From a virus (lineage: Duplodnaviria; Caudoviricetes): a DNA stretch of 55,603 bases. Position 1 is the first letter of the stretch. Each line of letters starts with the position of its first letter. The position numbers and the translations under genes were made by a program. Positions 14,623 to 31,779 of the stretch are shown here, in pieces. The stretch spans positions 1 to 55,603 of IMG/VR virus record IMGVR_UViG_3300031772_000046; one strand, written 5' to 3'. The notes below the pieces were generated by a model. That model was not told the origin of the DNA. It saw only the letters and a list, made by a program, of their open reading frames with translations, and made no database searches.

Positions 14623-14697
14623 TGGCTGAGGCGGCACGGGTCGAACGTGCGTTGACGGGTTCAAGGCCCGGCGTCCTACCGGCTAGACGACGCCTCA
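14623..14697 (-). tRNA. tRNA-Gln(UUG) with C33
   Basis: U1:A72, G73, encoded CCA, T-loop TTCGACC, anticodon loop CCTTGAA. Confidence 0.9.
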
Positions 14698-19456: not shown

Positions 19457-19530
19457 TGGTGGAGCGGCGCGGACTTGAACCGCGATCTCCTGGGTGCAGA
19501 CCAGGAATTCTCCCGTTGAACTACCGTCCC
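19457..19530 (-). tRNA. tRNA-Ala(UGC) with C33
   Basis: G3:U70, A73, CCA, loop TCTGCAC on a perfect CCTGG/CCAGG stem. Confidence 0.9.
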
Positions 19531-19535
19531 AAAGA

Positions 19536-19610
19536 TGGTGGGCGCGGGAGGAATCGAACCTCTATCGCGCGGCTTAAAGGGCCGCCGCTCTACCGTTGAG
19601 CTACGCGTCC
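19536..19610 (-). tRNA. tRNA-Lys(UUU) with C33
   Basis: Cloverleaf; loop CCTTTAA on a perfect GCGGC/GCCGC stem; A73; CCA. Confidence 0.92.
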
Positions 19611-21193
19611 GCTTCCTGCGACCCAAACAACGGCAACTCGGCACCCATGCGTTGCCTGATGATGTCGCAGTAGTGCGCATCCTTCTCGATGCCTACGGCG
19701 TTGAAACCCTCGCGCACAGCGGCAAGAAGGGTTGTCCCCGAACCGGCGAAGGGATCAAGGATGGTGCCGTTGGGCGGGCAGACAAGGCGACAGAGCCAGC
19801 GCATCAGGGCCAGGGGCTTGACTGTTGGGTGGTCGTTACCCTCGCCACGCTCAGACTGCGATGCCTTGGCGCAGTATCTAAATCGCTCTACGCAGTCCCG
19901 CCCCCCAAGAACCGCGTTCATCAGCATGGAGTCGGATATGACACTTTCTGCAAAGCCATCGATACTCGAAAGGGTGTGAATAGTCCCCATGGTGCTTATC
20001 AGCCTGTGGACTACCACATATCTCACAGGGGTGTCGTTCAACATTTCCGTGATTATGCGCCGCAACTCGGCAACACACTCTCGCCCTGTATTCCGCATCT
20101 GCGTGATACCGTTCCCGTCTCTCTGCTCGTATGCGTTCCCCATGGCGCTCATAAAACGTGCCAGCGGTGCGTTTGCGGCTTGCCCCTCTGGCAATTGCGC
20201 GACTACTACAAGATCTAGAACAGAATCGGCGAATCCCCTTGACTGCGTTGAATCCATTGCCACAGAATTCGCAGTATTTGACCAACTCTCGTCTCCCCCC
20301 TTCGTAATCTTGAAGAAACGAGAAGCGCCGCCCTTGCTGGGTCCGAAGTGTGCGCCGTCTGGTTTACCTCGAAACTGCCCGTAGATGCCGTGTCGCCCGG
20401 CTATGGCGGGCGCCGTCGGGCTTCTTGTCACGGCACCGCTGTTCAGGACACCGCTCTGCTTATCCAACATCGCAGCCGCCTCTTCGTCCAAGACGACGTT
20501 CGCGGGCCAGCGGCCATCGGTTGGGCGCGGGTGTTCACGGTTATCAAGTTGGCCCCCGTATCCGCATGAGGGATCGCCCTTCCAGCCACCCTTGCCGAAC
20601 AATCGGCACTCCTCGATGTTCATCGCCCCACATCCCCACTTGGCGATGTTCTGCGCATACGTGCCGTCAAGGGGCTTCTGCGCCAGGATAATGTCCTCAT
20701 GGGCGGGTTTCAGGGCCGTGCCCCACCCGTGCCAGTCGGGCATCTCTGCGGCAATGTTGTGGTTCTTGGGGAAGCCTGTCCCGTACAGCCAGCACAGTTT
20801 GTCCCTGACGATGAACCCCGCATCCTCAATCCCACAGGTAAGGCGATGAACCGTGCGCGTCCCGCCGAAGGCAAGGAGGTAGGCGCCGGGCTTCATCACG
20901 CGCAGAAGTTCGCGTGACCATGAGGTACACCACACTTGGTACGGATGTCCCGCCTCGTATGCGTTGACCGCATGGCGGACGTAGGCTCCCTTGCTGGCAT
21001 CGCGCAAATCAGCTTCACGTCGCGTGCGTGCTTCCGCGTGGGTATTGGCGGACTTAAAGCTGTCCCATTCCTGGCCCATGAACTCCAAGCCGTAGGGGGG
21101 ATCGGTGACAACGGCTTCGATGCTGTTGGCTGGCATGGCGCGCATTAGGTCCAGGCAGTCGCCTTGGTGCAGGGTCCATGGCATAGAAGTCAC
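19601..21193 (-). CDS. N6A/N4C DNA methyltransferase (beta class) with 145-codon in-frame insertion
   Basis: TDPPY, HPTVKP, LDPFAGSGTT; usual SRFF|YCAKAS segment is split by the insert. Confidence 0.93.
   Translation of the reverse strand: MTSMPWTLHQGDCLDLMRAMPANSIEAVVTDPPYGLEFMGQEWDSFKSANTHAEARTRREADLRDASKGAYVRHAVNAYEAGHPYQVWCTSWSRELLRVMKPGAYLLAFGGTRTVHRLTCGIEDAGFIVRDKLCWLYGTGFPKNHNIAAEMPDWHGWGTALKPAHEDIILAQKPLDGTYAQNIAKWGCGAMNIEECRLFGKGGWKGDPSCGYGGQLDNREHPRPTDGRWPANVVLDEEAAAMLDKQSGVLNSGAVTRSPTAPAIAGRHGIYGQFRGKPDGAHFGPSKGGASRFFKITKGGDESWSNTANSVAMDSTQSRGFADSVLDLVVVAQLPEGQAANAPLARFMSAMGNAYEQRDGNGITQMRNTGRECVAELRRIITEMLNDTPVRYVVVHRLISTMGTIHTLSSIDGFAESVISDSMLMNAVLGGRDCVERFRYCAKASQSERGEGNDHPTVKPLALMRWLCRLVCPPNGTILDPFAGSGTTLLAAVREGFNAVGIEKDAHYCDIIRQRMGAELPLFGSQEADA
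19878..20285 (-). CDS. HNH-type zinc-finger endonuclease nested in an alternate frame of the MTase
   Basis: CEFC..FCSRSC; CEIC..HHGDYSHP..WLCRKCH; own GGGGGAG RBS plus TTG start. Confidence 0.85.
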   Translation of the reverse strand: MVKYCEFCGNGFNAVKGIRRFCSRSCSSRAIARGASRKRTAGTFYERHGERIRAERRERYHADAEYRARVCCRVAAHNHGNVERHPCEICGSPQADKHHGDYSHPFEYRWLCRKCHIRLHADERGSWGAGLRRAI

Positions 21194-23050: not shown

Positions 23051-23542
23051 GCGGATACCCCCTCACTTTAGTCACGCTTCAGAAAATGGCGGGTCGTTCC
23101 CGGTGGGAGAGAAACTCGCAAGGGCGGGAACGATAGCACAAATGAGGGCGTGGCGCTGTTGGGCAAAGACACCGTTGTGTTCGCATATTAAAACCCGTGG
23201 GTGGGTGGAACGAAGCCCCCGGCACGCGACCGTACCCGGTCCCTGGGTCGGGGATCGGGGTGTTGGACGATCCCCCATGATCGGCCAGCGTATCATCGAA
23301 GGATTTCATCTGACAGTGCGCACGCGCCAGCCAGTACCGCTGTTGCCCGCCAGGATCACCCAGCACGGCCCTGCAAGGCCCGCTATCGCCCGCCAGCACC
23401 TGCGGCATGGCTGTGTCCGGCGCGTCCAACACCTCCGACCTGCCAATTAGGGCCTGGAAAGTCCCAGGACGTGACAGATAAATAACTCGGCCTGGGCGGG
23501 AGCAAACCCGCGTGGCTATTGAGTTTGAGGGCATTTTAGGGT

Positions 23543-23570
23543 ACGTCCCTTAATGAGTATTATGTAACCT
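23543..23570. other. dif: dif-like Xer recombination site
   Basis: 11-6-11 layout ACGTCCCTTAA-TGAGTA-TTATGTAACCT; right arm close to the conserved XerD arm TTATGTNAANT. Confidence 0.88.
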
Positions 23571-23616
23571 AGGGGGTGAGAATGGTCCTGCTGGACGCGA
23601 CAGACGCGGGGATCGT

Positions 23617-23922
23617 CTATGATCCTGGTCGCGGTCCTCTACTCAATGCACGCGCCGCTTCCTGGGCCATCCTCTCGACGCAGACCGCCGCGCACGTTTC
23701 GCCCTCCGCCGTCGGCGCATCCCCCGCTATAACGGTGCGGCCCCTAGCAACCAGCGCCTCCTCCTCGGCGCTCAGGGGTATCTGTCTCGCGTCGCCCTGC
23801 CATTGCTGCCCCGTGACCGCCCCCTGCAGTAGCCCGCAGTCTCCATCCCTCCATGCCATGCATCTGCCGCCCCAGCACCTGACACCCTGGCCGCGTCCTC
23901 TGATCGGGCACAGACTCCCCAT
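23617..23922 (-). CDS. Cys-rich hypothetical protein (paralog of 50586..50759)
   Basis: LCPIR...C.G.RCMAW...C. Confidence 0.6.
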   Translation of the reverse strand: MGSLCPIRGRGQGVRCWGGRCMAWRDGDCGLLQGAVTGQQWQGDARQIPLSAEEEALVARGRTVIAGDAPTAEGETCAAVCVERMAQEAARALSRGPRPGS

Positions 23923-24030
23923 ACCTCATTCCCCCCTGTCCTTCCCTGGTCTTCTCGACACGATCCGACATTCCGCGTCCTGCGTGCATTTGCGCGATCA
24001 GATAACCCGGCCCCCACAGGATCGAGGCTA

Positions 24031-24059
24031 TTGACATCCTCATCGGGGTATGATAGGAT
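24031..24059 (+). promoter_or_regulatory. Sigma-A/70 promoter of the rightward small-gene island
   Basis: TTGACA-17nt-TAGGAT with extended TG. Confidence 0.8.
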
Positions 24060-24262
24060 CATGGCAGACAGAGACGCTGCGGGCGCCACAGGGCGCCGGG
24101 CGACAGGGGGACGGACACAATGACGCACTGCACCATATGCCCGCTGAGTCAGGGATGTATCGACTATACCCCCGGCGCGCCGTGCTTCGCACCCGGCGAG
24201 CTCCTCAACGAGGACGACACCCGCGACAACTGAACTGAGCGCCATCATCCATCACGAGGAGG

Positions 24263-24499
24263 ATGCAGACCATGAACGACAGCCAAGTGGCCGAACTCAG
24301 GAACATCGTCGAGAAAGAAGTCGCCCGCGCGTCACAGACCGCGGACGCGGCGCACGTCCTGATCCACAAAGCCCCCGACGCACTGTCGCACGACGCCTAC
24401 ATATACAATTGGGGCGTCCAGGTCGGGCAAGAGACACAGGCCATGTTCTTGCTGACGGTCTTGGATCGTATCACGCGCGAAGCGCCGCAGACCGCTTGA
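24263..24499 (+). CDS. Hypothetical early protein
   Basis: GAGGAGG RBS. Confidence 0.7.
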   Translation: MQTMNDSQVAELRNIVEKEVARASQTADAAHVLIHKAPDALSHDAYIYNWGVQVGQETQAMFLLTVLDRITREAPQTA

Positions 24500-24501
24500 C
24501 A

Positions 24502-24572
24502 GCCGAAACCCCCGTCCACGCGGGCGGGGAGTCCGCCGGGAGTGGTCGCCCGGCGCTGATGAGGTAGACCAC
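24502..24572 (+). ncRNA. Type II hammerhead ribozyme with loop I pseudoknot
   Basis: GCC-GAAA-stem III-GTC^-stem I (CGCCGGG/CCCGGCG)-CTGATGA-GGT; loop GTGGTC pairs with 3' GACCAC; predicted cut after 24533. Confidence 0.95.
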
Positions 24573-24591
24573 ATACGAGGAGGGGTTGAGC

Positions 24592-24879
24592 ATGGATCGC
24601 GCCACTCTCAGCCAGCACGTGGCACAATGCATCGACCGCGCCAAGCGGGATCGGCGCGCATACGGCGACACCCACGACGGCGCCCAGGCAGGATACCGCG
24701 AGGCAGCCAGTCTGCTGGATACTCCGACCGACGACCTCAGTGCATCCCTGAGCTATCATATCCAGTCCGCCGACCGCGCCTACACCCGGGCGCTGGCCGG
24801 GACCGGCCCCGTCGCCTACTGCTCGGGGCGGCTCATTGCTCTGCAGCACGTACTGGCGCAATTGCCTTTGCCCGCTTGA
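24592..24879 (+). CDS. Hypothetical early protein
   Basis: GAGGAGG RBS after the ribozyme. Confidence 0.7.
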   Translation: MDRATLSQHVAQCIDRAKRDRRAYGDTHDGAQAGYREAASLLDTPTDDLSASLSYHIQSADRAYTRALAGTGPVAYCSGRLIALQHVLAQLPLPA

Positions 24880-24897
24880 CAAGCCGGGAACGGCGAA

Positions 24898-24926
24898 TCC
24901 GATGATCCGCCCACGGGCGGGGAGGA
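24898..24926 (+). ncRNA. Kink-turn element 1
   Basis: TCC-GAT-GA-TCCGCC-loop-GGCGGG-GA-GGA. Confidence 0.75.
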
Positions 24927-24958
24927 CGCGGGATACCATCATGGAGGAGGGACGCTGG

Positions 24959-25249
24959 ATGACGCAGTACAGGTGGCGGCCCCGGGGGCAAAGGCAGTAC
25001 AGCCGGGCGGAGAGCATCCCTGGAATCGCCACACTCAAGCGCCAGAACGCGATCAAGACCCCGGTCTATCTGGCACTACGCCGGGCCGGTCTAGAGGACA
25101 AGGCCGAGGAGTTCTTGCGCCGTGCCCGTGATCTCATTGCCCTACCGCTGGCAGAGTATCGGCGCGAGGTGACAGCTATGGCGCGAGAGTACTGCGCGGG
25201 CGACATAGACCTGCTGTGCGACGTGGCCGCCGCCATCGACCCGGCCTGA
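24959..25249 (+). CDS. Hypothetical protein (paralog of 29425..29637)
   Basis: ALRRAGLEDKAEEF. Confidence 0.7.
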   Translation: MTQYRWRPRGQRQYSRAESIPGIATLKRQNAIKTPVYLALRRAGLEDKAEEFLRRARDLIALPLAEYRREVTAMAREYCAGDIDLLCDVAAAIDPA

Positions 25250-25290
25250 CTGAGCATCCCCGCCCTATGGCGGAGAGGAGGTATCGACGA

Positions 25291-25479
25291 ATGGATATTG
25301 TCTGGTCACGGACGTGCCCCGACGGCACCACCCCAAATTACTGTCATATGAGCGACGGACAGCACAACGACAGCTGCCTCGCATGTCGGGGAGTGCGCCT
25401 GCTCGTCCCCGGTGAATGGGAGGTCAACTGTGACGGGCGCTGGGTGCCCGCCACGCTCCGCCCCAGCGATCAGCCCTGA
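25291..25479 (+). CDS. Small Cys-rich protein
   Basis: GAGGAGG RBS. Confidence 0.65.
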   Translation: MDIVWSRTCPDGTTPNYCHMSDGQHNDSCLACRGVRLLVPGEWEVNCDGRWVPATLRPSDQP

Positions 25480-25486
25480 CGTTCCC

Positions 25487-25513
25487 GCGCCGATGATGCG
25501 ACGGCGGAGGCGC
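25487..25513 (+). ncRNA. Kink-turn element 2
   Basis: GCGCC-GAT-GA-TGC-GACG-GCG-GA-GGCGC. Confidence 0.85.
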
Positions 25514-25538
25514 ACAACAGACTGAGGGGGTGTCGGCG

Positions 25539-25691
25539 ATGAGCGACCAGCAATGCGAGTCCTGCGATCACTTCCGCAGCGGCGGCGACATGGACGATCC
25601 CTGGATCGCGTGCGCGCGACTGGTGCCGGAGGCCGACTGGCCCGATCCTGATAACCCCGGCGCCACCTGCGCGTCGTGGGCGGCCCGTTGA
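25539..25691 (+). CDS. 50-aa Cys-rich protein (not in ORF track)
   Basis: MSDQQCESCDHF...CASWAAR; GAGGGGG RBS. Confidence 0.7.
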   Translation: MSDQQCESCDHFRSGGDMDDPWIACARLVPEADWPDPDNPGATCASWAAR

Positions 25692-25698
25692 CGTTCCC

Positions 25699-25727
25699 GC
25701 GCCCGATGACCCCCGTGGTGAGGGCGC
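25699..25727 (+). ncRNA. Kink-turn element 3
   Basis: GCGCCC-GAT-GA-CCC-CCGT-GGT-GA-GGGCGC. Confidence 0.85.
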
Positions 25728-25807
25728 ACGAAGCCAGCGGCTAACTGGCGCGCGAAGTCCTGGCGCCGCCCCACACGGGGCTGCTGGAGGCGGAGGAGGT
25801 AACTGAG

Positions 25808-26146
25808 ATGTACATCCCGCCCGGTCGGCCACCCTCCCCACGAGTCCTCGCCATGATCGACCGTGAGGTGAGGGATCGCATCAATACGCAACTGCGCGAG
25901 GAGTACGGCATAGACCCTGAGCGCGAGGTACTGATCCTGGCCGTTAAAATGTGTGACGGCAGTATCGAGTGGCGCGCGGAGGGCGCGACCTACCCCTGGC
26001 GGGCTGAGTTGACGCGCGCCGGGTTCAGGTGGGACCGCAAGCGCGGCTTCTGGACCAATTGGCCGCAGGGCTGCTATTCGTTTTCGCGCCGCCCCGCCCT
26101 TGAGGCCCTGGCCAATGTCCCGCATGTGGTAAAGGAGGCGTCCTAG
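25808..26146 (+). CDS. DUF5710-like domain protein
   Basis: GATYPWRAELTRAGFRWD...W. Confidence 0.6.
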   Translation: MYIPPGRPPSPRVLAMIDREVRDRINTQLREEYGIDPEREVLILAVKMCDGSIEWRAEGATYPWRAELTRAGFRWDRKRGFWTNWPQGCYSFSRRPALEALANVPHVVKEAS

Positions 26147-26359
26147 ATGGCCATCCAATGTTTCATGTGCCCTCTCAATGATGGGTACTACCTCCGGCGG
26201 GACGACACGATCCGGCGCATCTGCAACGCAAGGTGGCCCGGCGGATGGAGCGGGGCGCGCATACGGAAAATCACAGACGATCCCGGCATGGTCTGCCCCT
26301 GGGGCGACCATCCTCCTGTGGCGCAGGAGCCTCAGGGCCTCGCAGCGAAGGGGTGGTGA
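26147..26359 (+). CDS. Small Cys-rich protein
   Basis: AAGGAGG RBS; CxxC. Confidence 0.65.
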   Translation: MAIQCFMCPLNDGYYLRRDDTIRRICNARWPGGWSGARIRKITDDPGMVCPWGDHPPVAQEPQGLAAKGW

Positions 26360-26471
26360 CAATGCAATGGACGTTCTGCGGCGACCCCGATCCGCGCGAG
26401 GTGGAGATGTGGTTGGACGCCCTGACCGGAGCGATAGACTAGCCCCCACGGGGGGCAGGGAGGTGCCTGGA

Positions 26472-26945
26472 GTGGAGGAGCAGGATAAGCAGGCCCGCGT
26501 GTTAGCCCGGGAGGCCGCCGCCGCGATCAATCTCAAGACGCGGGCGGCCGAGTCGATCACCGGCGAGGAGACGTACTACGTCCTGAGGGACGACGCGCCC
26601 GCGTGGGTGCGTGAGCTGGTCCGCGAGGCCAACGCCGAGGGCGACGATTACCGCTACGAGTACATCTACGACGCTCTGGAAGCCCTGGCCGATGCAACCG
26701 ACGACCCCGATCTGGACGACTTGAGCTGGTACATTGGGCCGGACGCATACCACGGCCGGCTACTGCGCTGGCTGGGCAGCGACCCCGCCCGCATCCAGTA
26801 CGTCGATGATGCGATCAAGGAGGGCCGCGGCGACAGCGTCATGGACGACATCGGCGCCGGGCAGGTGGCCGAGAAGCGGGGGGTCTTTGATAGCGTCCTT
26901 CAGTCTCTTCGCGCCCGCGCCAAGTCTGAGCCCAAGAACGAGTAA
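26472..26945 (+). CDS. Acidic helical protein, candidate Ocr-like DNA mimic
   Basis: Very D/E-rich; located in the early island. Confidence 0.45.
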   Translation: MEEQDKQARVLAREAAAAINLKTRAAESITGEETYYVLRDDAPAWVRELVREANAEGDDYRYEYIYDALEALADATDDPDLDDLSWYIGPDAYHGRLLRWLGSDPARIQYVDDAIKEGRGDSVMDDIGAGQVAEKRGVFDSVLQSLRARAKSEPKNE

Positions 26946-26965
26946 GCCCCCACAGGGGGCGGGAG

Positions 26966-27184
26966 GTGTCTGCTGTGAACAAGAGCGAGGCCGAGAACCT
27001 GAGCGCGCGCATCGTCGAGGAGGATCCCCGGTGCCACGTTGACGGTCTGCGGTCAGAGAGTGGCGGCTACAGCATCGATGTCGTTGACACTCGCACCGGC
27101 TACCAGTTCGTGGTCGCCGACCCCGCAGATTGGGATGAGCGCGTTGCAGAAGCCCGGCGGTACGACCAGATCCTCAACGGTTGA
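26966..27184 (+). CDS. Hypothetical protein
   Basis: GGAGG RBS (start may be GTG at 26975). Confidence 0.65.
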   Translation: MSAVNKSEAENLSARIVEEDPRCHVDGLRSESGGYSIDVVDTRTGYQFVVADPADWDERVAEARRYDQILNG

Positions 27185-27228
27185 GGCGTGCAGTAACCGT
27201 CCCAAATCTGCATCGGGAGGTGTCGAGG

Positions 27229-27756
27229 ATGGCCTACGCGACCCTCGGCCTATGCCCAGCGCCCGACGGCCCGAGCCGACCATGCGTCAAGATCCACGAC
27301 TGGCAGGGGCTGCGCCACGAGTTCGCCTCTGCCGGGTGGCGGATCGACGGCGGCGACTGTTTCAAGGCGACGAAGGACCGTTACGATTTCGCCGGTCTCG
27401 CGGGCATCATGCGCGAGGCGCACGCCCTGGGCGCCAGGTGGGTGCTCTACCCCGAGGCGACCAAATGGAGACAGCTGATCAGCCAGAACCTCGGCTGGTG
27501 CGGGACCGACAAGCCGTCCGCCCTCGAGGCTGGGGCCATGGAGCGCGCTGCCGTGCAGTACGCCCTGATCTACGCGCTGGGCGTCAAGGTCGATTTTGAG
27601 CACGAGGTACTCGCCGCGTTCGCGGGTTTGCAACTCAGCGTCCTGCCCGACCCGGCCCACGGGGCGAACGACCCCGATCAGGAGCCGGCGGGCCCGATGG
27701 TCGTGACGATCAGGCCGGACATCCTGACGGGGCCGGCGCCGGAGCCCCAGCCTTAG
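27229..27756 (+). CDS. Hypothetical protein
   Basis: GGAGGTG RBS before MAYATL. Confidence 0.7.
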   Translation: MAYATLGLCPAPDGPSRPCVKIHDWQGLRHEFASAGWRIDGGDCFKATKDRYDFAGLAGIMREAHALGARWVLYPEATKWRQLISQNLGWCGTDKPSALEAGAMERAAVQYALIYALGVKVDFEHEVLAAFAGLQLSVLPDPAHGANDPDQEPAGPMVVTIRPDILTGPAPEPQP

Positions 27757-27769
27757 ACCGTGCCGTTCC

Positions 27770-27808
27770 GCCGATGATCCGGCGCGCCAGACCCCGCGCC
27801 GGGGAGGC
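27770..27808 (+). ncRNA. Kink-turn element 4
   Basis: GCC-GAT-GA-TCCGGCGCG-loop-CGCGCCGGG-GA-GGC. Confidence 0.85.
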
Positions 27809-27853
27809 CAACTAGGGGACTGCGGCTACCTCAAAATCAGCGCCGCAGAGGGA

Positions 27854-28192
27854 GTGCTGAACATGACCCAGTACGGCGTCGATGACCGCAGCAACGGTGT
27901 CCCGGAGTCCGAGTGCCTGTTCGTCGTGATGGACGCGGGCGAGGAGTGCATCGATGTGTTCCCCACGCGCGCGGAGGCCATCGCGTGCATCGAGAAGGAC
28001 CGCGCAAAGGACCACCCGTACATCGCGGACCCGATCCTGCTTGTGGTGCCCCGCTGGGGACGCACCATCGACCGCGACGCTCTGACCGACGACGACGGCC
28101 GGTACACTGCCGTCCTCTGGCCCGACGGCAAGGCGTCTGAGGTGTGGGCCGACGATGAGCACGACGCCGCCGAGCACGGCTTCAGGGCCTGA
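27854..28192 (+). CDS. Acidic hypothetical protein
   Basis: ORF between k-turn elements. Confidence 0.7.
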   Translation: MLNMTQYGVDDRSNGVPESECLFVVMDAGEECIDVFPTRAEAIACIEKDRAKDHPYIADPILLVVPRWGRTIDRDALTDDDGRYTAVLWPDGKASEVWADDEHDAAEHGFRA

Positions 28193-28200
28193 CCCGTCCC

Positions 28201-28235
28201 GCCCGATGACCCCGCCTCCCCCAGCGGGCGAGGGC
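28201..28235 (+). ncRNA. Kink-turn element 5
   Basis: GCCC-GAT-GA-CCCCGC-loop-GCGGGC-GA-GGGC. Confidence 0.85.
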
Positions 28236-28290
28236 TAAGAGGGGACTGCGGCGGCTCAACTATACTGCCGCCGACAGGGAGGACGAGAAG

Positions 28291-28803
28291 ATGGCGCCCG
28301 ATGACATTGACCGGCTCTGGCGTCTCATTGATAACTGCCGCATCGACGCCGAGAACGAGGTTGGCGATGACTGCCTTGTGAGGGATTTTGACTGGCACAA
28401 CACGTTTCTGGCTACGGCGGCGGCGCTGGCCGATCATTATCTCGCCGGGGCCGACTGGTGCCGCCACGCGCAACTGATCACACGCGCGTGGGGCGCGCTC
28501 GGTAACGCCTACGCCGTGTCCCGGGATACGCCCGTCGAAACGGGCATGTGGTGGGATGCGGGCGAGGACGGGCATGAGTTCCCCGTTGTGATCACGGAGA
28601 CTGTGTTCAAACACTTCTATGTCTCTGATTTTCTGCCTACTCGGCCACGCGCGGAGACGTTCGGCGGATGGCTGCTGGCACTTCAAGGTGTCCTGGGTGT
28701 GTCAGCTATGCCGCTAGACTTCGAGGAAGGCTGGCGCCGTTCCATGATGTCTGTGCTCGCGCCGCTCCTGTGTGAATTGCGCGACGCAGGGAGGGTGGAC
28801 TAA
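28291..28803 (+). CDS. Hypothetical protein
   Basis: GGAGG RBS. Confidence 0.75.
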   Translation: MAPDDIDRLWRLIDNCRIDAENEVGDDCLVRDFDWHNTFLATAAALADHYLAGADWCRHAQLITRAWGALGNAYAVSRDTPVETGMWWDAGEDGHEFPVVITETVFKHFYVSDFLPTRPRAETFGGWLLALQGVLGVSAMPLDFEEGWRRSMMSVLAPLLCELRDAGRVD

Positions 28804-28910
28804 TGTTCCTGGGCCCTCCCTTCCTCACGGCGGGGAGGCCACAAACCGCCAGTCACGGGGCGCGAAGTCCTGGCCCCGGCCTTACGAGGTCTGGCGGAGG
28901 CGGAGAGGAG

Positions 28911-29255
28911 ATGAATGCGATGTCGCCTGATGTCACAGACGCAGAACACCGGCGCCAACAGCGGCGCGATCAAGAGGGCCGATACACGCCGTATTCCGCC
29001 ACCGTCCCACGCGCTCTCCTGGAGGCGGCGATTGACGGGTGGCTACATACTGGTGGCTTGGCCGCGCCCCACAGTCACTGCCCAATAGCGCGGTGCGGAT
29101 TCGAGCCGCGCCCACCCTGTCCTTGCGCCGACTGCGGCGCGGAGCAGGCCAACTGCGACGACAACCCGTGCAGCTTCGGGGACTACTGCAACCGAGAGCG
29201 GGCGCGCGAGTGTGCGGTTGCCGCATTGGTCCAACGGTGCGGAGAGGGGGACTGA
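28911..29255 (+). CDS. Cys-rich hypothetical protein
   Basis: GAGGAG RBS; many Cys. Confidence 0.65.
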   Translation: MNAMSPDVTDAEHRRQQRRDQEGRYTPYSATVPRALLEAAIDGWLHTGGLAAPHSHCPIARCGFEPRPPCPCADCGAEQANCDDNPCSFGDYCNRERARECAVAALVQRCGEGD

Positions 29256-29424
29256 GCATCATGCCCGCTGTCACGCGCTACCTCGACTGCACAGTCACGC
29301 TGTACGACAATCGCCAGATCAGCGTCAATGCGGACAGCATCGTGTTTTTTGCAGAGGTGGATGAGCACACAATGGAGGGGCTGCTCCGCCATCTCCCCGA
29401 CAACGCGGCCCCGAGAGAAGAGGT

Positions 29425-29637
29425 GTGACCGTGGATACAGCCACAAAGCCTGTTGTGCGCCTTGACGGTGCGCCCCGCAACGCCGTCGCCATCATATACC
29501 GTGTGCGCCGTGCGTTGCAGAAGGCGGGACTGGCAGACAAGGCCGCCGAGTTCGAGGCGGAGGGCAAGGAGCACATCGACGATGACGATCTGGATGAGGT
29601 TCTGGGTCTTGCCTTCGACTACTGTGAGGTGGAGTAA
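29425..29637 (+). CDS. Small conserved phage protein
   Basis: KPVVRLDG..NAVAII.RVRRALQKAG. Confidence 0.75.
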   Translation: MTVDTATKPVVRLDGAPRNAVAIIYRVRRALQKAGLADKAAEFEAEGKEHIDDDDLDEVLGLAFDYCEVE

Positions 29638-29646
29638 GCCCAACCC

Positions 29647-29688
29647 GCGCCGTGACCGATGATGCCCGCTGAGCGGAGGTCGCGGCGC
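29647..29688 (+). ncRNA. Kink-turn element 6
   Basis: 11-bp C-stem GCGCCGTGACC/GGTCGCGGCGC; GAT bulge; tandem G.A pairs. Confidence 0.88.
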
Positions 29689-29704
29689 AAATGAAGGAGG
29701 TGCG

Positions 29705-29956
29705 GTGATGAGCAGGACCATCAAGGGCTACGCCGAGTTTGAGACGGATCACGAGGATTGGGATTTCGTGGTCGCGCCCGAGAACAAGGGCGATTGCCCG
29801 GCCCACGACAAGTACGGTCTTGAGGTGGGTCACGGCACGTGTGTTCGACACTACCAGACCTGCCCCCACTACGGCGGTGGTCTGATTCAACACGACCGCG
29901 ACATGGACTTCGGCGAGGTCGCCATTACGTGCAAGCACGGGGAGGCTACCCCATGA
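29705..29956 (+). CDS. Cys-rich protein, MxRxIxG...TC family
   Basis: MSRTIKG...CPHYGG...ITCKH. Confidence 0.7.
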   Translation: MMSRTIKGYAEFETDHEDWDFVVAPENKGDCPAHDKYGLEVGHGTCVRHYQTCPHYGGGLIQHDRDMDFGEVAITCKHGEATP

Positions 29957-30120
29957 CCCGCGATGAGCTGGTGGTCGAGTTGGAGAAGCTGGCCGCAACG
30001 TGGGCGCCTAGGGCCGACCCCGGCAACGACTACTCCTCCTACGGAGAGGGCGTCGCCCACGGGTACAACCGCTGCCTAGGTAATCTGGAAACGCTGATCG
30101 CCAAGGCGAAGGAGGCGTGA
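29953..30120 (+). CDS. Hypothetical protein
   Basis: ATGA-coupled start MTRDEL. Confidence 0.65.
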   Translation: MTRDELVVELEKLAATWAPRADPGNDYSSYGEGVAHGYNRCLGNLETLIAKAKEA

Positions 30121-30123
30121 ACG

Positions 30124-30318
30124 ATGCCCAGATTCCGCCTGACGGTCACCGGCGAGGTCACTACCCGTAAGCGCGACTACCTCGACGGCGCCACGCCCGA
30201 GGACATGTTGAACGTCGAGCTCCAGCAGTTGCGCGACGACCCGGCGGCGTATCTCGACTACTTCGGCGACACCCTCAAAATCGAGGGGGTTATCCTGGAA
30301 TCCAGCGAGGAGGCGTGA
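30124..30318 (+). CDS. Acidic hypothetical protein
   Basis: AGGAGG RBS. Confidence 0.7.
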   Translation: MPRFRLTVTGEVTTRKRDYLDGATPEDMLNVELQQLRDDPAAYLDYFGDTLKIEGVILESSEEA

Positions 30319-30321
30319 GCC

Positions 30322-30537
30322 GTGGACATCAAGGAGGCTGTTGCCAGGTTGCGCGCGGAGGCCGCCTCGCATGAACGGGGCGGCACGATCAGTCTGCTGG
30401 CGCTGCGGGAGATCAAGCACATTGGCGAGGCCGATAAGGTCATGGCGCTTGCCCAGGGCATCCTGACCGCCCGCCAAGGGCGCGACCTGTTGATTCTGAT
30501 GGCAGACATGCTGGAGAAGGAGGCGTCCAAGCCATGA
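30322..30537 (+). CDS. Hypothetical protein
   Basis: GAGGAGG RBS. Confidence 0.7.
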   Translation: MDIKEAVARLRAEAASHERGGTISLLALREIKHIGEADKVMALAQGILTARQGRDLLILMADMLEKEASKP

Positions 30538-30875
30538 GGCCGAAGTTGCCGCTCAACGCCGAGGTGTTCTCGAATTACCGCCATTGGTGTTCTGTGCGGG
30601 ACGCTGACAACAACCATCTCTTCTGCGTGCGCAGCGACGGCAAGACCGACGTACCCGCCGCCGAGTACGCCGCCTTCGTCGTCGCGGCGTGCAACATGGC
30701 CGAGAAGGTGGAGGCGCTGGCGAAGGACTGGGCGTACCGCGCCGAGGCGTGCGAGGACACGGCGACCGTCTCGGCGCAGATGGGCGGCGGTCTCGTTGAC
30801 ATCGCCACTACTCGCGCCAAGGATCTCCGCGAAGGCGCCGCCGCCCTCCGCGACATCCTCAAGGAGGTGGCCTGA
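30534..30875 (+). CDS. Hypothetical protein
   Basis: ATGA coupling. Confidence 0.7.
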   Translation: MRPKLPLNAEVFSNYRHWCSVRDADNNHLFCVRSDGKTDVPAAEYAAFVVAACNMAEKVEALAKDWAYRAEACEDTATVSAQMGGGLVDIATTRAKDLREGAAALRDILKEVA

Positions 30876-30876
30876 C

Positions 30877-31188
30877 ATGCTAGATCCACGCGGGCCGCAC
30901 AAACCGCACAAACCGCACCGACTGATCCCGCCATTCCCCGACTGGTTCACGACCGGGGACGCCGAACGCTGGCTGAAACTGTCGCCAGTCAGACTCGGCG
31001 ACGGCGCGAGGGCGGGGCGCGTGCCCTTCTTGAACCCGGCGCGGGCGTTCGGTAGCACCATCCCATACTACTTCAGCGCGGAGACCTTGATCGCGTTCTG
31101 GCGCGAACGACATGGGCTTGGCCCCGAGTGTCAGCCGCCCCCGATGCCGCCCGACTTGGCGGCGAGAATCGAGGCGGCGAAGAAGTAA
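30877..31188 (+). CDS. Excisionase/MerR-like HTH protein
   Basis: FTTGDAERWLKLSP...ARAGRVP. Confidence 0.55.
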   Translation: MLDPRGPHKPHKPHRLIPPFPDWFTTGDAERWLKLSPVRLGDGARAGRVPFLNPARAFGSTIPYYFSAETLIAFWRERHGLGPECQPPPMPPDLAARIEAAKK

Positions 31189-31191
31189 CGC

Positions 31192-31224
31192 GAGGCCCCC
31201 GGCGAGGTTCTGTCGGGGGCTTTG
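31192..31224. terminator. Hairpin terminator between convergent operons
   Basis: GGCCCCCGGCG...TGTCGGGGGCTTT. Confidence 0.7.
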
Positions 31225-31230
31225 CCGTGT

Positions 31231-31779
31231 CTATTGGCTACACGGCCAGTACGCTACACAGTCATGCACCGTGGTTTGGATGCGGGAATACTCTCGCCCG
31301 CCGGCCAAGTTGCCCTGCCACTTCTCCGCGAACGCCTCCACCCTGCGGATGATCATGTCCGCCTCGGCTTGCGCCTCATCCTTGGCGGGACCGGGATCCT
31401 TGGCGGCGGCTATTGCGTCGCGCAGGTCGGCGACAGACCATTGGCGGTATCGCGTGCTGCTGTCGGGTAGGTGCTCCTCGCCACCATGGACCGCCAAGTG
31501 AAGCCACATAGACGGGTCTTTCGTACACGCGCAGATCCTGTGGATCTCCCAGGACATGTCAGCGGCCCGCGTCTCAACCGGGAACGCCTTCGCCGTCTTG
31601 ATCAGGACGCGAACCCAGTTTGCGGAACAGCCAAGCTCAGAGGCGGCGGCGCGGTCAAACTTCTCATCGCCCTGATAGACTTCCTTGGCGAGGGCCAGGA
31701 GGTCGCCTATCTCCCAGTCGGCGTCCCAACCGTCCTCAAAGTGATCGCGGACGTGGCTCATGAACTCCTCGAAGGTCAC
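31231..31779 (-). CDS. Hypothetical helical DNA-associated protein
   Basis: WEIGDLL...MSWEIH...WSVADLRDAI. Confidence 0.75.
   Translation of the reverse strand: MTFEEFMSHVRDHFEDGWDADWEIGDLLALAKEVYQGDEKFDRAAASELGCSANWVRVLIKTAKAFPVETRAADMSWEIHRICACTKDPSMWLHLAVHGGEEHLPDSSTRYRQWSVADLRDAIAAAKDPGPAKDEAQAEADMIIRRVEAFAEKWQGNLAGGREYSRIQTTVHDCVAYWPCSQ

Follow-up and report, generated by a model that had tools for sequence, protein, structure and literature searches.

A type II hammerhead ribozyme motif and six predicted k-turn hairpins in the intergenic spacers of a phage operon

A short intergenic spacer near position 24,500 of an IMG/VR virus record raises the question of whether it holds a complete self-cleaving RNA and, if so, whether this RNA is connected to the k-turn-like hairpins that lie in other spacers of the same operon. 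The window analyzed is the whole stretch of 55,603 bases, a record classed as linear and with a CheckV completeness estimate of 60%. A preliminary description, made from the sequence alone, had claimed a complete type II hammerhead with all core nucleotides, three stems and a 6-bp pseudoknot. This was borne out: positions 24501-24573 on the plus strand aligned to Rfam family RF02276 (Hammerhead_II) over the full model (positions 1-66 of 66), with a consensus core, stems I-III and all six pseudoknot pairs. The comparison with Rfam hammerhead models that the same description had proposed as a check gave 58.8 bits against a gathering threshold of 37, with E 1.2e-9 in a search of both strands of the whole window with 4227 Rfam families.

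The element is the sole hammerhead of the record, being the one match among 24 scored candidates. Above the gathering thresholds, the Rfam search detected this hammerhead and three tRNA genes on the minus strand (14626-14697, 19460-19530 and 19539-19610; 50.2-55.6 bits) and nothing else in the window. Two of the tRNA genes, 19460-19530 and 19539-19610, are adjacent, and a DNA methylase gene (19601-21193) lies just upstream of them.

All parts of the motif were located on the plus strand. The topology is type II, with stems I and III closed and stem II open, and the structure line of the Rfam model agrees with this. Stem II consists of three pairs (G24502-U24565, C24503-G24564 and C24504-G24563, from the alignment and pair list) and is followed by G12, A13 and A14 at 24505-24507 (sequence and pair list). 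Stem III, supported by the fold and the pair list, is a 10-bp hairpin at 24508-24532 with a bulged A at 24530 and an ACGC loop, and its closing pair A15.1-U16.1 corresponds to A24508-U24532 in the sequence and the Rfam alignment. The same two sources place the GUC (G16.2, U16.1 and C17) at 24531-24533. The predicted scissile bond C17/N1.1 falls between 24533 and 24534 in the Rfam alignment, its chemistry being taken from the family, and the position agrees with the earlier prediction of cleavage after base 24533. Stem I is a 7-bp hairpin (24534-24540 with 24549-24555, fold and pair list) with an 8-nt loop at 24541-24548, and the core CUGAUGA (C3 U4 G5 A6 U7 G8 A9, sequence and Rfam) covers 24556-24562. 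The 5' strand of the pseudoknot, GUGGUC in loop I (24542-24547), forms six Watson-Crick pairs with the 3' strand GACCAC (24567-24572), which is separated from stem II by one spacer A (24566).

All conserved core positions have the consensus nucleotide, including the GAAA at 24505-24508 and the GUC at the cleavage site. G24563 appears as an insertion in the Rfam alignment, and we take it to be G10.1, paired to C11.1 (C24504) by the usual numbering. The bulged A of stem III adjoins the second pair of the stem and is scored as a mismatch in the Rfam alignment; it counts against activity.

Unconstrained minimum-energy folding recovered both stems I and III. The folding energy had a z-score of -1.58, and 14 of 200 shuffled sequences folded as well as the native one, a modest result that reflects the high GC content of the sequence. 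The significance of the element thus comes from the covariance-model score and not from the folding energy. Six or more loop-tail pairs arose by chance in 325 of 20000 tail shuffles and for 165 of 20000 random 15-mers of the window (0.8-1.6%).

The possibility that the motif is a chance or antisense artefact was weighed against these results. The region might be coding on either strand, since shadow ORFs overlap the ribozyme (24397-25056 and 24332-24574 on the minus strand, 24409-24567 on the plus strand), or it might be a CRISPR-like repeat, as it includes a sub-threshold match to CRISPR-DR29 at 24523-24559 on the minus strand (22.9 bits against a threshold of 39). The overlapping ORFs do not, however, have the codon-position GC pattern of real genes, a stop codon and an RBS with its ATG flank the element, and the match to the full model has the E value of 1.2e-9 given above. 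No repeat array is present, and the CRISPR-DR29 match is therefore regarded as fortuitous, arising from the palindromic stems. Together these observations effectively refute an artefact.

The nearest relatives of the hammerhead were found in two metagenome contigs, L272 (334-402) and L273 (607-675), with scores of 56.8 and 57.2 bits. Searching with an exact 17-mer from the ribozyme tail found 12 viral loci, of which only one, the IMG/VR locus L014, contains a hammerhead (1453-1518; 51.2 bits), whose 3' tail matches that of the window. A contig of a Chloroflexaceae MAG (L274) contains a hammerhead-like sequence, as judged by eye and with a pairing script. The tail GGUAGACC is common to the window and to L272, L273, L014 and L274, and continues with AC in all of them except L274. 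One further candidate, L275, was rejected as an apparent chance match, having no stems. L014 also contains a twister-P5 ribozyme (2267-2328; 48.4 bits) on the same strand, about 750 nt downstream of its hammerhead.

Stems I and III of L272, L273, L014 and L274 differ in sequence and still pair. In comparison to the window, L272 and L273 have two changed pairs in stem I, one swapped from C-G to G-C and the other altered from C-G to U-G. Their stem III pairs despite a largely different sequence, and the register of their pseudoknot is displaced by one. The test for compensatory change included four relatives, two of them nearly identical and three (L272, L273 and L014) exceeding the Rfam threshold, and pairing was assessed with a script for each sequence and not as a column-wise pair count across the five hammerheads. 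The retention of the fold through compensatory change argues for selection on the structure. Membership in RF02276 is accordingly indicated by the score above gathering, the invariant core, the type II topology, the pseudoknot of at least 4 bp and the compensatory change in the relatives.

The hammerheads of L272 and L273 are located directly upstream of an ArdA antirestriction gene, and in L272 this ArdA-family gene (PF07275, 71.4 bits) covers 421-954 and begins about 20 nt after the ribozyme. The proteins encoded upstream of the ribozyme in L272 and in the window were compared and are unrelated, which indicates that the ribozyme travels independently of its neighbours. Directly 5' of the ribozyme, the heptamer CUUGACA (24495-24501) is shared with L272 (329-335) and L273 despite the unrelated upstream genes. 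This heptamer contains TTGACA, and in the window it also contains the upstream stop codon.

In the window the hammerhead fills the gap between a stop codon, TGA at 24497-24499, and a GAGGAGG Shine-Dalgarno sequence at 24577-24583 on the plus strand, 8 nt before the ATG at 24592. As had been described, the first base of the motif (24502) follows the stop codon after 2 nt. The GAGGAGG also lies downstream as described, but the gap to it is exactly 4 nt (24573-24576) instead of about 5 nt; apart from this single adjustment, the coordinates and features of the preliminary description were correct.

The upstream ORF (24272-24499, plus strand) is the first convincing cistron and an ORFan, encoding 75 aa from the ATG at 24272 or 78 aa from the ATG at 24263, with GC contents of 0.64, 0.39 and 0.79 at the three codon positions. 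Its protein has no Pfam or PHROG family and no relative in the viral contigs. Also the second cistron, downstream of the ribozyme (24592-24879, plus strand; GC by codon position 0.71, 0.54 and 0.76), is an ORFan. Its 95-aa protein matched only itself among 5.8 billion clustered proteins, searched at lengths of 52-167 aa, and gave no ArdA signal in profile searches. The locus L002 was considered as a source of a relative of this gene and rejected, as it gave one weak match of 22 residues and has no hammerhead.

The transcript had been assigned to a promoter at 24031. A promoter-like site is present there on the plus strand (24031-24059; TTGACA-17 nt-TAGGAT with TG before the second hexamer), and it is well placed and matches the consensus at 10 of 12 positions. 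The number of such sites is no better than expected by chance, as this is the single match in 23400-31400 and shuffled sequences average 1.1. The promoter is plausible as far as the sequence goes. No plus-strand terminator-like site was found between 24059 and 24500.

The cistrons belong to a plus-strand island (approximately 24050-31190) of about 16 ORFs inside a phage whose other genes lie nearly all on the minus strand. At the start of the island is a 515-nt divergent spacer with the promoter-like site, and at its end is a strong terminator-like hairpin at 31190-31225 on the plus strand (15 pairs, 10 of them G-C). The divergent promoter region and the convergent terminator as boundaries give the island the look of a moron or early-gene cassette. 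Its GC content is 0.635-0.674 per kb, in comparison to mostly 0.57-0.64 elsewhere, and it has a clear plus-strand codon bias. None of the 16 island ORFs had a Pfam or PHROG match, and NCBIfam gave only noise far below the cutoffs. Some small ORFs of the island are rich in Cys, for example 24120-24233 and 25291-25479.

The phage is of a temperate type and encodes a portal protein, a large terminase, an integrase, RecT, a YqaJ-type exonuclease, SSB and RusA, together with a DnaC-like loader, a holin, an amidase and two DNA methylases. The terminase had one relative, with 32% identity, and the portal protein had none among the genome contigs; the phage is isolated in these comparisons.

The placement of the ribozyme was compared with that of other phage hammerheads by means of a pattern scan of IMG/VR. 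The scan gave at least 104 distinct matches including that of the window, and 46 others passed a filter requiring at least 4 bp in both stems I and III. Since the pattern was derived from the ribozyme of the window and the stem filter was then applied, these 46 represent a sub-type and not an unbiased sample. An RBS and start codon were present within 70 nt downstream in 39 of the 46 listed hammerheads, while 13.7 ± 3.2 were found at random positions drawn from the same loci. A stop triplet occurred within 15 nt upstream in 38 of the 46 (25.2 ± 3.3 at the random positions). Loop-tail complementarity of at least 4 bp was detected in 31 of the 46, in comparison to 12.6 ± 2.6 (maximum 20) with permuted tails. 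The stop-to-RBS spacer is therefore the usual slot for such phage hammerheads.

Type II hammerheads are common in bacteria, and according to Perreault et al. (2011, PMC3088659), most of them can form a pseudoknot of at least 4 bp that joins loop I to the tail following stem II. When this pseudoknot was shortened or mutated, the cleavage rate fell 20- to more than 100-fold, and pseudoknotted representatives with a stem II of as few as 1-2 bp cleave fast and are located between prophage genes (PMC3088659). In prophages, several hammerheads are often found at the flanks of a gene or of a short block of genes, and three Legionella strains carry ardA directly downstream of a hammerhead (PMC3088659). 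In Desulfovibrio vulgaris, cleavage in vivo was detected with cyPhyRNA-seq for three predicted type II hammerheads in the neighbourhood of phage-like genes (PMC8782182).

The hammerhead of the window has the same core and topology as the pseudoknotted type II hammerheads (RF02276; PMC3088659), the same pseudoknot with a single-A spacer and the same setting among small phage genes. Its long stem III (10 bp with the bulged A) differs from those described in 2011, with no difference of principle. The window contains a single copy, whereas the 2011 paper stresses pairs and triplets flanking genes. The relatives L272 and L273 precede ardA, as do the ardA-linked hammerheads of Legionella and of the triple arrangement in Agrobacterium tumefaciens that it describes; the window differs from these in having a 95-aa ORFan as the downstream gene. 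The D. vulgaris hammerheads are members of the same family with hypothetical and phage-like genes nearby, and their products carry a 2',3'-cyclic phosphate and a 5'-OH (PMC8782182); they have been verified experimentally, whereas the copy of the window is predicted from sequence. It is sound to conclude that the hammerhead is genuine but ordinary, its kind and placement having been known since 2011.

The most probable function, held with considerable confidence from the sequence, is that an active, pseudoknot-stabilized type II hammerhead cleaves the operon transcript after C24533. The polycistronic phage mRNA would probably be initiated at the promoter-like site at 24031. Stems III and I would fold upon transcription, after which the pseudoknot would form between loop I and the tail that follows the short stem II. 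Attack of the 2'-OH of C24533 on its own 3' phosphate would then release a 5' product made up of the leader and the first cistron (24272-24499), with the stem III hairpin and a 2',3'-cyclic phosphate at its 3' end. The 3' product would start at C24534, 58 nt before the ATG at 24592, with a 5'-OH and with stem I as its first hairpin. By way of altered decay, cleavage would likely make the first gene independent of the following genes in stability and expression.

Unmasking of the RBS by cleavage was also considered. The probability of the RBS being unpaired in secondary-structure predictions was 0.69-0.76 in the uncleaved and 0.78 in the cleaved RNA. Because this accessibility is practically unchanged, no translational effect is predicted and unmasking of the RBS is not supported.

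It is also conceivable, though improbable, that the element is a hammerhead by descent that no longer cleaves appreciably in vivo and serves as a folded spacer, such as an exonuclease barrier or a pause site, or has no function at all. The bulged A in stem III is in line with this, as is the stop codon 2 nt from the ribozyme, at which terminating ribosomes should transiently unfold the 5' part of the motif and could keep it unfolded. In addition, certain hammerhead-like candidates were inactive in the assays of Perreault et al. (2011, PMC3088659). Against such a loss of cleavage stand the consensus nucleotides at every core position, the full-length presence of the pseudoknot, which was critical in the 2011 mutational work (PMC3088659), and the compensatory change in the relatives, which implies selection on the structure. 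Self-cleavage after C24533 thus remains the favoured interpretation.

The second part of the question concerns the k-turn hairpins. The preliminary description had noted that the hammerhead occupies the same stop-to-RBS slot as the k-turns, and this holds for six units in spacers of the same plus-strand operon: Kt1 (24898-24926), Kt2 (25487-25513), Kt3 (25699-25727), Kt4 (27770-27808), Kt5 (28201-28235) and Kt6 (29647-29688). They were identified with a k-turn descriptor consisting of a C helix of at least 3 bp, GAU, GA, a hairpin, GA and the complement of the C helix. The window contained nine descriptor matches, in comparison to 2.43 ± 1.65 (maximum 7) in 100 shuffles, and seven of the nine lie on the plus strand within 24898-29688. 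The seventh of these, at 25535-25561, is weak and falls inside the start of an ORF. The six GC-rich units have the sequence features of standard k-turns, namely a C helix, a 3-nt bulge, tandem G.A/A.G pairs and an NC helix, all with GAU as the bulge and C:G at -1b:-1n, and are predicted k-turns. In every case a stop codon precedes the unit and a GGAGG-type RBS follows it, and four units share the 5' flank CGTYCC, which follows or overlaps the stop codon.

A speculative evolutionary link between the hammerhead and the k-turns, raised from the resemblance of their cores, was not supported. The hammerhead model matched none of the six units at E ≤ 5 and none of Kt1-Kt5, scanned as short stretches, at E ≤ 10. 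The units have GA followed by G where A14 is required, they are closed by the C helix, and they have neither stem III nor a GUH site. GAUGA-type k-turn hairpins were not enriched across the 112,434 bases of 30 further phage hammerhead loci, which contained five descriptor matches on the same strand as the hammerhead and one on the opposite strand, none of them compact. The likeness is a shared short motif, GAUGA-helix-GA, which is small and common in RNAs. Minimal hammerhead crystal structures contain tandem G.A pairs next to a helix.

One explanation of the shared slot would be that the hammerhead and the six k-turn hairpins are one system, acted on by a common factor or doing equivalent jobs such as processing or translational control, and that hammerheads might even have given rise to the k-turn units. 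The common slot and strand and the strong clustering of the descriptor matches (7 of 9 in 24898-29688) are what it would predict, and the units and the hammerhead core have the local GAUGA-helix-GA motif in common. Set against this are the failure of the hammerhead model on all six units, the G at the position of A14, the missing stem III and GUH site and the low number of matches in the 30 other hammerhead loci, given above. Nor was an L7Ae-type or RNA-ligase domain found by Pfam among the 90 ORFs of the window. A single system is consequently considered very doubtful.

No compact GC-rich k-turn hairpins like those of the window were seen by eye among the listed pattern-matched IMG/VR loci, at least 120 in number, of which 11 fitted the descriptor at the site of the pattern. 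Among the listed results of a literature search, nothing relevant appeared on k-turn arrays in phage operons.

Among known k-turn RNAs, the drum RNA was the closest in appearance. Kt4 together with its 3' domain (27769-27851) aligned to the full drum model RF02958 with 23.6 bits against a gathering threshold of 43, a threshold that none of the k-turn units reached. The model gave no match to the other units at E ≤ 5 when all six were scanned, and none to Kt1-Kt3 and Kt5 at E ≤ 10. The likeness of Kt4 to drum consists of a k-turn hairpin followed by GGG...ACC.CAAA and a second hairpin. Kt5 shares the start of the 3' domain (AGGGGACUGCGGC) with Kt4, in the region 28236-28290 on the plus strand, where drum was not matched. 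Drum RNAs have a rho-independent terminator at their 3' end (Weinberg et al. 2017, PMC5737381), and their k-turn has been experimentally established (PMC8191799). Unlike in drum, an RBS and a start codon follow the units of the window, and no terminator-like site is present at any of them. Another k-turn motif, RAGATH-18, has reportedly been assigned to IS607 TnpB guide RNAs; it had no match in the window.

A bolder interpretation, which we regard as unlikely, is that seven structured RNAs, beginning with the hammerhead, punctuate the ORFan operon, the k-turns forming a new, phage-specific punctuation system that, alongside cleavage, sets the expression of each cistron. The k-turns could then be operators for a k-turn-binding protein, possibly encoded in the island, or a new processing signal. 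If this were true, one of the units would be a divergent drum-like RNA and would provide the first concrete context for drum RNAs.

For the biology of phage hammerheads, the present element adds one more well-formed member to a class whose biological purpose in phages remains unproven. Its clear-cut position behind the first cistron, in a discrete operon bounded by a terminator, makes it a convenient case for following how cleavage affects the fate of a phage transcript. The position of the nearest relatives ahead of ArdA reinforces the published connection of these ribozymes with early or anti-defence genes. Within the operon, the k-turn hairpin array is the more interesting and unusual feature, and it could lead somewhere new.
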